Below the pieces are notes generated by a model. It made no database searches. It was not told where the DNA came from and saw only the letters and a program-made list of their open reading frames with translations. This document shows, piece by piece, positions 1-22,617 of a DNA stretch of 64,000 bases. Position numbers and translations under genes: made by a program. The stretch is taken from positions 164 to 64,163 of the forward strand of contig JAGGXP010000020.1 of assembly GCA_021163005.1 (NCBI GenBank), given 5' to 3'. The stretch's first letter is position 1. Every line of letters begins with the position of its first letter. The stretch comes from Candidatus Aenigmatarchaeota archaeon. GTDB lineage: Archaea > Aenigmatarchaeota > Aenigmatarchaeia > QMZP01 > JAFGSV01.

Positions 1-213
1 ACAACGAGGGAACCCTGTTCCCGATGCTTCCGCGTGAGTGGATGCAAGGGAATTTATTCCCGATGCTTCCGCTTGCGCCAAAAGCTTAACGAAAACAAGC
101 CTTTTACAGGAGCTCCGTTCCCTCCGGAACTTCACGTCCGCAAAAGCCTTGAGGGAAAAATGAATATTTACATTATAACGTGCTGTCGGGGAAATTTATC
201 CGTGCCTTCGTGT

Positions 214-332
214 CTCGGGTCAAAAGGCTGCTGAGCTTCGGATAACAGATTGCGCTGTCCGAACTCATCTTTTCCGTTAACACTTAACCATTTTACGGGA
301 GTTGAAACGTCCGCCAAAAGCTTAACGAAAAT
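214..332. repeat. Intergenic repeat module copy A (CTCGG-TCAAAAGGCTGC-GAGCTTCGGATAAC..GCGCTGTCCGAAC..TTTTCCGTTAAC..CCAAAAGCTTAACGAAAA)
   Basis: About 85-90% identical to 21960-22068 and 22218-22300. Contains the hairpin GAGCTTCGGA/TCCGAACTC at 233-266. The CCAAAAGCTTAACGAAAA motif also occurs at 78-95. Confidence 0.75.
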
Positions 333-512
333 GGTAAGAACATACCAGCGGCATCTCTTCTTTCAGGAAGCCTGTTCCGGGAAGCGCCTTATATATTGGC
401 GGCAGCCGGACTTTTCGTTAACGTTTTTGGATGTTTCTGAATGCCAATTCGGAAACAAGGGGATGCATTTCTGCGCCTTATTCCCGCAGTTTATCCTGTC
501 CAAAAAGGTTAG

Positions 513-676
513 TGCGGAGGCGAGGGTTCGAACCTCGGAACCCACTAAGGGAGCAGGTCTTGAGCTTCGACTTCACCAAGCAAGCGCTTTCAGCGCTCAA
601 GAGGCAATCTGCCGCGTTTAGCCCCCGACTGCTACGCAACAACAGCCTGCGGGTTTGACCACTTCGCTACCTCCGC
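513..676 (-). tRNA. tRNA-like gene with ~90-nt internal insertion (putative intron-containing class II-type tRNA; anticodon unresolved)
   Basis: Minus strand reads GCGGAGG-TA-GCG-AAGTGGTCAAACC-CGC ... CGAGG-TTCGAAC-CCTCG-CCTCCGC-A. The 7-bp acceptor stem is perfect, the T-arm with TTCGAAC loop is canonical, and the D-arm resembles class II (Leu/Ser) tRNAs. A CCC-TTAGT-GGG long-variable-arm-like hairpin precedes the T-arm. About 90 nt of insert carries its own stems (CTTGAGC..GCTCAAG and GCGC-TGAAA-GCGC). I could not fold a clean anticodon arm by hand. Confidence 0.4.
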
Positions 677-1937: not shown

Positions 1938-2080
1938 AGTGTTGTAATATAATATTACAACATAATTATATATAAGTACGAAGTTATCCGTTTTTTATGA
2001 ACGAAGATCATAATGTTGGAATTTTTTCAGAAAATATTTATGAAAACAAATAGAATGCGTCGGCCGGGATTCCCAGCTCT

Positions 2081-2135
2081 CTGAACCGCAGGGGGCACAT
2101 CCCCCTTCAGTTCTAAGGTGTTCCTGATTCCCCCT
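2081..2135. repeat. 55-nt structured element, identical copy at 22131-22185
   Basis: Exact 55/55 match. The sequence CTGAA-CCGCA-GGGGG-CACAT-CCCCC-TTCAG forms an extended hairpin. Confidence 0.8.
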
Positions 2136-2344
2136 TTATTTTCTTCTTCCGGGGGAAACCTGGGCACCATTCCTCTCTTCCCTTTAACGGGGAATAATGC
2201 TTTAAGGGGGCGTATAAGCGTAAGCTATCGTGGCCCCCTTGAGCCTTTGAACCCGGGTTACAGCGTTGGCAACGCCGTGTCATAACCAGACTAAACTACC
2301 GACGCGTGTGTAATGTTCTTGTATGTCAATTAATAAAAGTTTTT

Positions 2345-6573: not shown

Positions 6574-6660
6574 ATGCCGAATCTGCGCATGGAGCGCAGC
6601 AGTAAACGGATGCCGAATCTGCGCATGGAGCGCAGCAGTAAACGGATGCCGAATCTGCGG
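6574..6660. repeat. 36-bp tandem direct repeat (2.4 copies), each unit with CTGCGC-N5-GCGCAG palindrome
   Basis: ATGCCGAATCTGCGCATGGAGCGCAGCAGTAAACGG occurs twice, followed by a partial third copy. It lies between the dnaG stop and the M24 peptidase start. Confidence 0.85.
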
Positions 6661-14226: not shown

Positions 14227-15915
14227 ATGAAATTGTGGAGACTGGATTTCCTTAAGGGACTCGGGGAGCTTCTCAGGAAAGAAAAGGCAGCAGCCCATCC
14301 CAATTTCTATATCAGGGAGCCGGCATATTTGTTCAGCCTGCCTGTATCAAAGGACGTCAGGAAAGTTGATATAAGATATCCGCTTCTCGAACCGCTTGCA
14401 TCGGCCCACATAAAGTGGGACCCTGTAAAGAAGACGCTCATTTACCATGTTTCTGAACCGAAGCTCTCGAAGGCCGACAGGGAACTCATAGAGAAAGTCA
14501 AGACTGACATAACAGAGCTCATAGACGTCGAGCTGACAGCACTGAATGACAAGGGAAAGACGCTCGACTATATACAGGAAAAAGTAAGCAAGGTGCTTGA
14601 GGAAGAAAACATCAGGCCTGATTCGAAGAGCTACATAAAACTCATGTATTACATCTACCGGGATTTTGTGGGCCTCAATGAGATAGAGCCGCTGATGCAC
14701 GACCCTTACATAGAGGACATAGGCTGCGACGGCTTAAACAGCCCCATTTACGTTGTTCACAAAATCTTCGGCTCTGTTGAAACAAACATAAGATACACCA
14801 ACATGGATAATCTGAACAACTTTGTTGTAAAGCTTGCCGAGAGATGCGGCCGGTACATATCATATGCAAGACCGCTGCTTGACGGCTCGCTGCCTGACGG
14901 CTCAAGGATACAGGCGTCGCTTGCAAAGGACGTTACAACAAGAGGTCCTACGTTCTCAATAAGAAGGTTCAGGAAATTCCCGCTGTCGCCTGTGGAACTC
15001 ATGAATCTTGGAACGGCTGATTCTGATGTCATGTCGTATCTCTGGCTTGTCATGCAGTCGGGTGTCTCTATGCTGGCATGCGGCGGTGTGAGCACGGGAA
15101 AGACCAGCCTCCTCAATGCAATAACTCTTTTCATCCCCCCTGGCTCAAAAATTGTTTCAATTGAGGATACACGCGAGCTCAACCTGCCGCATGAAAACTG
15201 GATACCATCTGTTTCAAGAACAGGCTTCGGCGTCCCTGACTCCACGGGAAAAAGATACGGAGAGGTAACACTTTTCGAGATTCTGAAGGAGTCATTCAGG
15301 CAGAACCCCGATTATGTGATAGTAGGCGAGGTAAGGGGCAAGGAGGCATATGTAATGTTCCAGGGCATGGCTTCCGGACACCCGAGCATAGGGACAATAC
15401 ACGCCGGATCTGTCGATGATGTTATCAAAAGACTGGAGACTCCACCAATATCCATATCGCCCAGCCTCGTGGAATCACTTGACCTGCTCATAGTAATGGT
15501 AAAGTCAAAAGAGCGAGGCGAGTCCGCGCGAAGGATCAAGGAAGTGGTAGAGATACAATCTGTGGACATCGAGACAGGCAAGGCAAAGACGCTTAAAAGT
15601 TTTATGTGGGACCCTGCGACTGACAAGTTTCAGAGCAATATCACGGAATCCGAGCTTCTAAGAAAGATATCCTTTGACAAGGGACTCACATACCAGAAAA
15701 TAACAGAGGAGCTCAAGAACAGAAAAAGGGTGCTCGAATGGATGCAGCGCCACGGCGTGACCAACTACGGAAGCGTTGCAGAGTTCATTTACATGTACTA
15801 CAAGGACCCGAAGGTTCTCATGAAATGGGTGGAGAAGGACGTGCACCCCTTTGAGGCAAAAAGCAAGTCAAAGAAACTGCGGGGGTTCGTGACAAAACTA
15901 AAATCTCTTGAATGA
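14227..15915 (+). CDS. type IV filament (archaellum/pilus) secretion ATPase, FlaI/ArlI/PilB-like
   Basis: Walker A GGVSTGKTS followed by IVSIEDTRELNL, and the VirB11/GspE-family layout. 562 aa. Confidence 0.85.
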   Translation: MKLWRLDFLKGLGELLRKEKAAAHPNFYIREPAYLFSLPVSKDVRKVDIRYPLLEPLASAHIKWDPVKKTLIYHVSEPKLSKADRELIEKVKTDITELIDVELTALNDKGKTLDYIQEKVSKVLEEENIRPDSKSYIKLMYYIYRDFVGLNEIEPLMHDPYIEDIGCDGLNSPIYVVHKIFGSVETNIRYTNMDNLNNFVVKLAERCGRYISYARPLLDGSLPDGSRIQASLAKDVTTRGPTFSIRRFRKFPLSPVELMNLGTADSDVMSYLWLVMQSGVSMLACGGVSTGKTSLLNAITLFIPPGSKIVSIEDTRELNLPHENWIPSVSRTGFGVPDSTGKRYGEVTLFEILKESFRQNPDYVIVGEVRGKEAYVMFQGMASGHPSIGTIHAGSVDDVIKRLETPPISISPSLVESLDLLIVMVKSKERGESARRIKEVVEIQSVDIETGKAKTLKSFMWDPATDKFQSNITESELLRKISFDKGLTYQKITEELKNRKRVLEWMQRHGVTNYGSVAEFIYMYYKDPKVLMKWVEKDVHPFEAKSKSKKLRGFVTKLKSLE

Positions 15916-21750: not shown

Positions 21751-21959
21751 ATATAATTAGAATCCAGAGCTCTAAACTAATCCTTTTCCTAACATAAACA
21801 GTGTAATACTTACCTGATTGTAAAGTATTTAAATGAGTATGCATCAATATTGTTATGGAACAGAACGCACTGCTTTTGAAAAAACTTGTGAAAGAGATTG
21901 CTGCCATAAGGGCAGAACTTGCCGGATTAAGGAAAGACTTGAATAAATGACTGGCAGAA

Positions 21960-22068
21960 AAGGCTTACTGAGCTTCGGATAACTGTTTGCGCTGTCCGAA
22001 CTCATCTTTTCCGTTAACGCTTAACCTTTTTACGGCAGCTTCCGCTTGCACCAAAAGCTTAACGAAAA
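21960..22068. repeat. Intergenic repeat module copy B1
   Basis: Matches 214-332. Hairpin GAGCTTCGGA/TCCGAACTC at 21970-22003. CCAAAAGCTTAACGAAAA at 22051-22068. Confidence 0.75.
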
Positions 22069-22130
22069 TGTTAAGACTTTACCACTGCGCTGCATGTCTC
22101 GGCCAGAAAGCATCCGGGCTGCATTAACAT

Positions 22131-22185
22131 CTGAACCGCAGGGGGCACATCCCCCTTCAGTTCTAAGGTGTTCCTGATTCCCCCT
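22131..22185. repeat. 55-nt structured element (second identical copy)
   Basis: Identical to 2081-2135. Confidence 0.8.
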
Positions 22186-22217
22186 GAAAATGATAGGTTA
22201 ACCACGCCTTTAATGCC

Positions 22218-22300
22218 TCGGTCAGAAAAGGCTGCCGGGCTTCGGATAACTGTTTGCGCTGTCCGAACCCGTATTTTCCGTTAACGCTTTTTGGCAGTAT
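22218..22300. repeat. Intergenic repeat module copy B2
   Basis: Hairpin at 22236-22271 with GGG/CCC replacing GAG/CTC. A GTTTCTGAATG(T/C)CAATTCGGAAAC palindrome occurs at 22408-22436 and matches 433-460. Confidence 0.7.
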
Positions 22301-22617
22301 GGACAGAAAAGGGTTAAGCGGAGAAGGGGATTTCCACACACCTTTTGCCATTTGGTTACAAGACTTCTCTTTGTTGTCAACGGATGTTTCCGTCAACGCT
22401 TTTGTCCGTTTCTGAATGTCAATTCGGAAACAAGGGAACTCATCCTGCTTGTTCCCGAAGCTTGCTTTGGCAAAAGGGTTGTATCGAACCCCTCTGAATC
22501 GGTATCTATCGGTCATCAGCACAAGCCTACCAATACCGCCTGCAGCCGATCGCCTGAACCACTCGGCCATCTCCGCTTGGTATCCTAAATTAATAGGAGG
22601 AGTTTTAAATTAATTAT

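Follow-up and report, generated by a model that had tools for sequence, protein, structure and literature searches.

H1, a hairpin repeat with a covarying stem at gene and tRNA 3' ends in a population of Candidatus Aenigmarchaeota

Dispersed, structured palindromes of the repetitive extragenic palindromic (REP) type are a classic feature of bacterial genomes. The stems of REP sub-families differ by alternative complementary residues and contain G.T pairs (PMC3733652). In archaea, transposable elements of the miniature inverted-repeat kind (MITEs) and palindrome-associated transposable elements (PATEs) have been described, and the palindrome-associated elements of Haloquadratum are related to the insertion sequences IS200/IS605 (PMC3119063, PMC10969869). 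The archaeal terminator, which is also the binding element of aCPSF1, consists of U4 tracts, especially of two that lie close together (PMC8716108). Near-identical sequences in the introns of different tRNAs of Thermoproteales have been described as 'transposition' (Fujishima 2010, as cited in PMC4090602), and tRNA genes are also disrupted by mobile elements (Sugahara 2012, PMC3293823). Here, a repeat called H1 is compared with these systems. It consists of a hairpin and the surrounding repeat unit, and three copies are present in a stretch of 64,000 nucleotides (in the following "the window") that comprises positions 164 to 64,163 of contig JAGGXP010000020.1 (assembly GCA_021163005.1). The existence of the hairpin is confirmed, covariation preserves its pairing, and the units lie at transcript ends, in an orientation that is fixed relative to the abutting gene.

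The window represents nearly all of a 64,496-bp contig, which belongs to a metagenome-assembled genome of a 'Candidatus Aenigmarchaeota archaeon' (DPANN). The population was sampled at vents, the source samples being SAMN18353072, SAMN18353073 and SAMN18353076 and JGI 3300016457 and 3300021471. A first-pass annotation, made from the letters of the window, had reported a hairpin at three places and one compensated base pair that distinguishes the third copy from the first two. The three copies were recovered with a degenerate 34-nt pattern, which matches at 233-266 (copy A), 21970-22003 (copy B) and 22237-22270 (copy C) and nowhere else in the window, while the number of matches expected from 100 shuffles of the window is zero. 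The span that had been given for copy C, 22236-22271, denotes the same copy and differs by including the outermost pair. The exchange of A:T for G:C on both arms is also real (GAG...CTC in copies A and B versus GGG...CCC in copy C). The number of compensated pairs had, however, been set too low, and the change of the outermost pair from U:A to C:G had been overlooked. The outer helix of copy C reads CGGG/CCCG instead of UGAG/CUCA, i.e., it carries four transitions, all of which are compensated.

The arms of the hairpin are imperfectly complementary and do not form a perfect inverted repeat. All folding runs gave one shape, which comprises 36 nt in total: an outer helix of 4 bp (UGAG/CUCA), a bulged C, an inner helix of 8 bp including one U.G pair (UUCGGAUA/UGUCCGAA), and a loop of 11 nt. 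The folding of the three 36-mers beats that of dinucleotide shuffles, with z values of about -2.4 to -3.0. A covariance model that was run over the whole window with filters off found the three known copies only. In searches against Rfam with the gathering threshold and with permissive thresholds tRNA alone was matched, and the best other scores were at most 21 bits, compared with thresholds of at least 45 bits. A scan for bacterial-type promoters and terminators gave counts equal to those of shuffles, and it is blind to H1 because of the 11-nt loop.

The complete unit has a length of 73-82 nt and is composed of CAGAAAAGGCTTAC, the hairpin, TCTTTTCC, an 8-bp palindrome and CTTTTT. From the alignment it can be written as CAGAAAAGG(C/G)TTAC, hairpin, (T/A)(C/A)TTTTCC, 8-bp palindrome and CTTTTT(G), and the next unit or gene end restarts with CAGAAAAGG. 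In the minimum-free-energy fold the hairpin is lengthened by a flanking helix, GAAAAG/CUUUUC. After the hairpin, the + strand has UCUUUUCC and GCUUUUUG, i.e., a U4 and a U5 tract inside 20 nt. In copy B, the unit of which begins 5 nt past the stop codon of a micro-ORF (open reading frame, ORF), T4 is found at 22007-22010 and T5 at 22027-22031; in copy C, T4 is found at 22274-22277 and T5 at 22288-22292. The - strand contains GCCUUUUCUG, the same motif that is seen after the tRNAs and genes abutting the arrays. The sequence past the hairpin on this strand, GUAAGCCUUUUCUG, is nearly the trailer of the abutting tRNAs (TTAACCCTTTTCTG) and of gene ends, and similar motifs follow the stop codons of an 86-aa gene (TAG CCCTTTTCTG) and of an rpoN-like gene on contig L017 (TAA GCCTTTTCTG). 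L-numbers denote metagenome or strain contigs of the same population or, where indicated, of relatives. The partial unit at the end of the second repeat region of the window is the reverse complement of the tRNA trailer, and the same motif opens all H1 units. A genome-wide TTAACSCTTTT terminator consensus for protein genes was also considered and was discarded, as the motif is confined to the repeat regions.

The 8-bp palindrome starts 7 nt after each hairpin, in the window at 275-282, 22012-22019 and 22279-22286 (the last being CGTTAACG, in copy C), and it is present at the same position in L017, L023, L026, L030, L049 and L055. It varies symmetrically between copies (CGTTAACG, CCTTAAGG, CGCTAGCG) and is perfect in 11 of the 14 copies that were recovered in all. 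It cannot be a hairpin, because it has no loop; the symmetric change may be due to a dimeric DNA-binding protein or to templated mutation.

Copies outside of the window were searched for in several collections. A loop-anchored pattern gave five unrelated matches in 185,579 species genomes, three of them in one alphaproteobacterial coding gene, and the source lineage is therefore not represented among these genomes. Viral contigs (searched with two patterns), phage records and plasmid records contained no H1-related match. True copies were found in a metagenome scan, on L017, L023, L024 and L026, and further strain versions of the loci were retrieved via contigs that encode exactly identical neighboring proteins. 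In all, 14 module copies with 10 distinct 36-nt hairpins were recovered from six loci, and every one of them lies outside of ORFs. The survey covered about 100 kb of population DNA, i.e., the 64-kb window and about 40 kb of further loci, and in this DNA the density of H1 is about one locus per 20-30 kb.

Every variant folds as 4 bp, bulge and 7-8 bp. An informative variant was seen at the site of copy B in L030, L033 and L035, again 5 nt after the micro-ORF stop codon, where the hairpin is UGAG-C-UGUGCAUG...CGUGCGCA-CUCA. In its inner helix other Watson-Crick pairs have taken the place of three pairs, a wobble pair has taken that of a fourth, and the bulge, the U.G pair and the loop length are unchanged. 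In L031, L024 and L049 one pair steps from A-U via G.U to G-C, and another changes from U-A to G-C; in L038 an A-U pair has become G.U. Not all changes are compensated: L009 carries a hybrid, CGGG...CUCA, the top of the inner helix is frayed in L055, and the top pair is frayed in variants v7-v10. Identical 36-mers are present at unlinked loci, namely in copy A of the window, L017 and L026.

The first-pass annotation had taken the compensated pair as a sign of selection on an RNA or DNA structure and not of a neutral repeat. The additional population copies support selection on structure, in that their changes are mostly compensatory rather than random, and pairing is kept by matched changes on both arms to an extent that exceeds shuffled and slid controls. 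In an alignment of 12 modules, 97.9% of the pair cells are standard pairs and both sides have changed at 6 of the 12 pairs, and none of 500 shuffles of this alignment reached the observed paired fraction or covariation score. For the 10 distinct hairpins, 94.2% of the cells are paired, again with 6 of 12 pairs double-changed, and there are 14 double-change cells. When the partners of these hairpins were slid by 1-3 columns, pairing went down to 8-43%. RNAalifold independently predicts the same helix. Constant in all variants are the bulged C, the T.G pair, the loop positions A14, G17, T20 and C24, and several stem pairs. A covarying stem together with fixed irregularities argues for a structure that something reads, and the fixed bulge, mismatch and loop bases suggest a protein partner, which might be the spreading machinery or an RNA-binding factor.

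On the reverse strand 85% of the cells pair, versus 94% on the + strand, because the one invariant U.G reads C.A on the other strand. Without this position the strands are equivalent, and thus the data are silent on which strand folds and on whether it does so as RNA or as DNA. The covariation rests on recombining variants from within the population, and the number of independent events is small (at least about six), because the copies are related by recombination. In addition, mutation templated by the palindrome could yield matched changes without selection.

The three window hairpins lie in two repeat-rich intergenic regions, A (1-512) and B (21951-22316), which have the modules D3, D4 and D5 in common and each of which ends at the 3' end of a minus-strand tRNA. 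D3 corresponds approximately, in inverted form, to the TTTTCCGTTAACGCTT segment located after H1. The six independent loci are region A, region B, L031, L024, the L026 locus and L017. Some units are solitary and others form head-to-tail arrays, and they are placed exactly at the 3' ends of genes, between convergent stop codons and behind tRNAs; L026 has two units head to tail with a period of 82 nt. At all six loci the array abuts, through CCTTTTCTG, the 3' end of a gene or tRNA that is encoded on the strand opposite to H1(+). The far side of the array is taken by a convergent gene at three loci and, in region A, by the promoter of the rpl18e ribosomal-protein operon.

Contigs with 100% identical flanking proteins differ in the kinds and the number of units. 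At least four haplotypes exist for the B locus, at least three for the L026 locus and at least three for region A. In the latter, H1 and D5 are present or absent, and in L024 another tRNA adjoins it. Several of these haplotypes recur in independent assemblies (ENA, JGI, Logan), and assembly noise is thus not their source. Most short-read contigs, which come from several assemblers, stop inside the repeat regions, which is evidence for multi-copy repeats. In L009, nine changes compared to the window are confined to the unit, and the contig is otherwise identical over 490 nt. This patch looks like gene conversion, and an assembly chimera is unlikely, because the junction has only 9 nt in common with other copies.

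In relatives with flanking proteins of 70-93% identity, all corresponding sites are empty. In L057, in which the flanking 207-aa protein is 93% identical, the convergent stop codons touch, and in L058, with 82% identity of the same protein, they are 8 nt apart, while the window lineage has 225-466 nt of modules where these genes nearly abut. In L045, which encodes an HxlR-type regulator of 72% identity, the micro-ORF stop codon is 22 nt away from an uninterrupted tRNA, and no unit is present. L046 and L047 (HxlR-type regulators of 70% and 77% identity) have no unit either. With the covariance model, which was derived from the recovered copies, true copies reach at least 62 bits, whereas the 49 kb of the relatives gave at most 18.4 bits and no copy. 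Judged from these comparisons, the H1 units are recent insertions or expansions that are lineage-specific and recombine quickly.

The features of the window are listed in Table 1.

Table 1. Positions of H1 units, sister modules, interrupted tRNAs and a micro-ORF in the window
Feature	Positions	Strand	Evidence and remarks
H1 unit, copy A	218..290	+	Hairpin 232-267, outer helix UGAG/CUCA; covariance model 83.7 bits; pattern match; fold
H1 unit, copy B	21955..22027	+	Hairpin 21969-22004; covariance model 95.8 bits; sequence; fold
H1 unit, copy C	22223..22294	+	Hairpin 22236-22271, outer helix CGGG/CCCG; covariance model 90.4 bits; pattern match; fold
Partial next unit, CAGTATGGA-CAGAAAAGGGTTAA	22295..22316	+	Alignments, sequence
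Repeat D3 (CCAAAAGCTTAACGAAAA arm)	54..95, 290-331, 22027-22068	+	Repeat search, folds
Repeat D4	2080..2135	+	Inside the tRNA-Gly T-loop intron
Repeat D4, second copy	22130..22185	+	Intergenic, between H1 copies B and C
Repeat D5, hairpin GTTTCTGAATGNCAATTCGGAAAC	412..468	+	Intergenic, region A; repeat search
tRNA with 40-nt and 48-nt insertions	513..676	-	Rfam tRNA 30.4 bits, model positions 1-71
tRNA-Gly(GCC) with 176-nt T-loop intron (2070-2245, position 59/60)	2056..2305	-	ARAGORN, fold
tRNA with 152-nt T-loop intron of the bulge-helix-bulge (BHB) type (22331-22482) and anticodon-side intron	22317..22576	-	Folds, manual splicing; 3' end faces region B
31-aa micro-ORF	21855..21950	+	H1 copy B would be in its 3' untranslated region

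Sister modules of H1 are also found inside interrupted tRNA genes. A standard ARAGORN run on the window found no tRNA, and intron-aware runs and manual splicing were used. The tRNA-Gly gene is missed by standard ARAGORN and by Rfam, and ARAGORN calls a perfect 74-nt tRNA-Gly only once the intron is removed. The tRNA at 513-676, the 3' end of which faces region A, has a long variable arm, its 40-nt insertion lies in the D-loop region and its 48-nt insertion in the anticodon loop. According to folds and hand analysis, the T-loop insertions fit the topology of BHB introns. The T-stem comes first and is followed by a bulge of three nucleotides (AAU) in the 3' strand. Next is a helix of 4 bp, in which exon UUCG/UUCA pairs with the 3' end of the intron (UGGA/UGGG), then a further bulge of three nucleotides, this time in the 5' strand, and finally a helix formed within the intron. 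BHB cleavage falls after the second base of the bulge. When this rule is applied, the tRNA-Gly regains UUCAAAU, and the tRNA facing region B regains UUCGAUU, which is the T-loop of the uninterrupted ortholog in the relative L045 (TTCGATT; GCA_028279705.1, 9650-9770). As the T-loop of this ortholog is intact, the T-loop intron of the tRNA facing region B was gained recently.

Several modules occur in introns as well as in intergenic arrays. The intronic and the intergenic copy of D4 are identical at 56 of 56 positions. D5 has a second copy at 22387-22443, inside a tRNA T-loop intron, with 82% identity to the intergenic copy. Strains L041 and L042 lack the intergenic copy, and the junction shows a GTTT microhomology. 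The H1 variant v8 lies antisense inside a T-loop intron of L024. It was also considered whether the D5 hairpin might be an origin-recognition box (GGAAAC...GGGG), but there is no adjacent orc1/cdc6 and no AT-rich unwinding element. These common modules provide a link between the H1 family and the reported archaeal tRNA intron 'transposition'.

Two further observations concern tRNA loci. At positions 1-330 of L024 region A adjoins another tRNA. Two copies of the 3' exon of that tRNA (AATCCTGCCCCCCGCAC) are present, about 100 nt apart; the duplicated exons flank a D4-like module, an arrangement that resembles the att-site duplication by an integrating element. At positions 900-1010 of the relative L046 a T-loop-interrupted tRNA was found. 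Its intron ends with CGGAAAT and contains GCGTACTTTCCG, which recurs in intergenic arrays of the window lineage (L030, L031 and L033).

Compared with bacterial REPs, bacterial interspersed mosaic elements (BIMEs) and REPINs (paired, inverted REPs), H1 has much in common. It is an imperfect palindrome within the typical range of 20-40 nt, it has many near-identical extragenic copies, these are mostly located at gene 3' ends and often between convergent genes, and they form mosaic arrays with other short modules. Alternative complementary stem residues, a property of REP sub-families, are found at half of the 12 pairs of H1, and termination and protection of mRNA 3' ends, which have been proposed for REPs, are the kind of role proposed here for H1. 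In contrast to REPs, the hairpin is preceded on the + strand by CTTAC, CTGC or CTTC and not by GTAG/CGTC; G(T/C)A(A)G occurs near H1 solely 3' of the hairpin on the - strand. Unlike in REPINs and BIMEs, neighboring copies are all direct, with a spacing of 267 nt in the window and of 82 nt in L026. Further differences are the archaeal (DPANN) host, the A4/T4 tracts in the units, and the sister modules that are present inside tRNA genes as introns. A gene for a REP-associated tyrosine transposase (RAYT, Y1 transposase) was found neither in the 64-kb window nor in the other loci of about 40 kb, which together make up roughly 10% of the genome. H1 thus agrees with the descriptive features of REPs but lacks two defining ones, the tag and the inverted pairing, and it is not a member of the REP/RAYT family.

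Similar to archaeal MITEs and PATEs (Sulfolobus SM elements and the Haloquadratum palindrome-associated elements), H1 is a small non-coding repeat with inverted or palindromic sequence, its insertions are polymorphic between strains, it has expanded in a lineage-specific burst, and there are filled and empty sites among related genomes. It is much shorter than these elements, no parent insertion sequence is identifiable, nothing related is present in the viral, phage or plasmid collections, and its stem covaries, while theirs keeps a fixed terminal inverted-repeat sequence. The units are bounded by a 13-nt direct repeat, CAGAAAAGGSTTA, which is possibly part of the unit itself, and a comparison of filled with empty sites (L054/L049 versus L057/L058) revealed no duplicated host bases.

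With archaeal U-tract terminators (aCPSF1/FttA; PMC8716108) H1 shares the position right after stop codons and tRNA 3' ends and the tracts of U4 or longer, two of them within 20 nt on the + strand, and with bacterial bidirectional intrinsic terminators it shares the symmetry of A-tract, hairpin and T-tract between convergent genes. It differs from ordinary terminators in being a dispersed, near-identical repeat, and archaeal termination is not known to need a hairpin. The tRNA introns of Thermoproteales resemble the present case in that a near-identical sequence is found in different tRNAs at non-canonical positions, the tRNA loci are heterogeneous within the population, and the BHB is kept at the junctions. 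In the present case, however, the modules also build intergenic arrays, H1 is mostly extragenic, the host belongs to the DPANN archaea, and the position is in the T-loop (59/60). Three other assignments of H1 were rejected. A BHB motif has a 4-bp helix between two 3-nt bulges located on opposite strands; H1 has the helix, but its 1-nt bulge and its 6-nt internal loop are on the same strand. A C/D-box small RNA carries a C box (RUGAUGA) and a D box (CUGA) at its ends; in H1 a candidate C box is present on the - strand (AGAUGAG), but only in some copies, it is lost in copy C (ACGGG), and there is no D box. An integron attC site has R''/R' core sites (RYYYAAC...GTTRRRY) and extrahelical bases and is found among cassettes close to intI. 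GCTTAAC is present in D3, but cassette ORFs and an integrase are absent, and the arms are without core sites.

Based on these features, the favored reading, with about an even chance, is that H1 is an archaeal REP/BIME-like repeat that gives a hairpin and U4-or-longer tracts on both strands and acts as a terminator or a 3'-end protector. Each unit would supply a stable hairpin flanked by such tracts on either strand. Transcripts arriving from both sides would meet archaeal U-tract termination signals and would gain a 3' hairpin that resists 3'-5' decay, and densely packed convergent genes, tRNAs and the ribosomal-protein promoter would be insulated from each other. The folded hairpin might in addition be read by the protein partner suggested above. 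The U4-or-longer tracts are present just past gene and tRNA 3' ends on the + and the - strand, and the arrays separate genes that sit head-on in relatives. Several points weigh against this role of H1. Archaeal termination requires U tracts and not hairpins (PMC8716108), and close relatives manage without a spacer between the same genes. A plain terminator does not account for the conservation of loop bases, for the bulge or for the T.G pair. The strand preference is nil apart from one invariant position, and only about 14 copies were recovered. In L024 a copy lies antisense in the T-loop intron of a tRNA, and termination at this place would do harm. No transposase, integrase or other recombinase was detected in the 64-kb window (Pfam on 20 ORFs and precomputed Pfam for the remainder), and no clean target-site duplication is visible at H1 insertions.

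Instead of serving transcript ends, H1 could be a selfish mobile hairpin, the folded single-stranded DNA of which is the substrate of a Y1/HUH-type transposase, following the logic of RAYTs or of IS200/IS605 ends, or of another recombinase that is encoded elsewhere; the position at gene ends would then merely reflect tolerated or targeted insertion. Covarying stems with an invariant bulge, mismatch and loop bases are typical of DNA hairpins that are read by their structure, the alternative complementary residues have their like in REP sub-families (PMC3733652), and the equivalence of the two strands is what a structure at the DNA level would give. Mobility is indicated by the presence of filled as well as empty sites, by the identical copies found at unlinked loci and by the restriction to one lineage. 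On the other hand, no transposase was detected in the about 100 kb of population DNA, the stem lacks a GTAG/CGTC tag on its 5' side, an inverted-pair (REPIN) layout is absent, no clean target-site duplication is visible, and the differences between haplotypes resemble exchange or unequal crossing-over between units. To our knowledge, RAYTs have been described from bacteria only. A selfish hairpin is regarded as the main alternative, though a tentative one. A neutral repeat could have acquired matched changes by arm-templated mutation (quasi-palindrome correction) or by gene conversion, with no selection on structure. This would account for the symmetric changes of the loop-less 8-bp palindrome, which selection on a hairpin cannot explain, and it would agree with the conversion-like patch in L009 and with loop variants that are common to copies B and C within a strain. 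However, under correction between the arms the bulged C and the T.G pair would be expected to disappear, yet neither of them varies among 10 variants with differences at up to nine stem positions, the states A-U, G.U and G-C at one pair form a stepwise series, and the outer and the inner helix covary independently, so that a neutral origin is improbable.

It is similarly unlikely that H1 is derived from an internal helix of the T-loop BHB introns of this clade or functions as such a helix, in which case the arrays would be deposits of intron modules and the stem would be kept since introns must fold compactly to present their splice sites. Variant v8 does lie inside a T-loop intron, D4 and D5 are common to T-loop introns and intergenic arrays, GCGTACTTTCCG is found in the T-loop intron of a relative and in arrays of the window lineage, and the - strand of H1 reads ..GAG-UUCGGA.. 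and continues with the tRNA-trailer-like GTAAGCCTTTTCTG. But all three window copies and most of the others lie outside of tRNAs, the sole intronic copy is antisense to the tRNA, and H1 forms no BHB, as both irregularities are on one strand. That H1 is a family of stand-alone genes for small regulatory RNAs (riboregulators) is very improbable. Such genes would fit the conserved structure, the partly conserved loop sequence and the terminator-like U tract after each unit; against them stand the absence of an Rfam match, of a promoter-like BRE/TATA (transcription factor B recognition element/TATA box) at a suitable distance, where the tRNA promoters of this lineage have CTTTTAAAA-type boxes at about -30, and the variation of presence and copy number among near-identical strains, together with the absence from relatives.

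A wider proposal extends to the sister modules: H1, D4 and D5 might be mobile, self-folding DNA units of a new archaeal transposition or recombination system, although this is rather doubtful. In such a system a palindromic unit would land in a T-loop, its paired ends would complete a BHB, and it would survive as an intron. What the mobilizing enzyme reads would be the covarying hairpin, including the invariant bulge and mismatch. If this were true, archaeal tRNA intron gain ('intron transposition') would be in progress in this population.

The remainder of the window encodes housekeeping genes, e.g., for a CCA-adding enzyme, RadA, RtcB/archease, TFB, Pus10, SRP54 and ABCE1, and also the AMP-pathway trio of e2b2, form III RuBisCO and AMP phosphorylase. 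The micro-ORF upstream of copy B has a coiled-coil-like sequence and is divergent from an HxlR-type regulator; a TTTAAAT box precedes its ATG by about 30 nt. It is called as a gene of 31-37 aa in L030, L032, L033, L045, L046 and L047, in the relatives beside the HxlR-type regulator, and it is probably a real small protein gene, because it is conserved in L045, L046 and L047. Near the start of an M24 peptidase gene there is a perfect 36-bp tandem duplication (6574-6645, two copies of ATGCCGAATCTGCGCATGGAGCGCAGCAGTAAACGG), and the annotated length of this peptidase varies among strain contigs (341 versus 361 aa). Between about 30000 and 43000 large ORFs without a Pfam match lie among M15 peptidase, SLT-like and glucosaminidase-like domains and a 748-aa T2SSE-type ATPase, and this block may encode a cell-surface or host-interaction apparatus of a DPANN archaeon. 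A further T2SSE ATPase of the window (14227-15915, 562 aa) is without an intein, whereas its ortholog in L045 (16031-19222) has 1063 aa and contains an intein that carries a LAGLIDADG domain.

We know of no description of REP-type palindromes from DPANN archaea. The reduced genome studied here shows a recent burst of REP-like units with clear covariation and turnover at the strain level. A practical consequence is that the units break short-read assemblies of the lineage and that its tRNA genes escape standard tRNA finders. The mode in which archaeal tRNA introns are gained has, as far as we know, long been unclear, and this population provides filled, empty and variant alleles with which intron gain, its mechanism and the enzyme involved can be studied.

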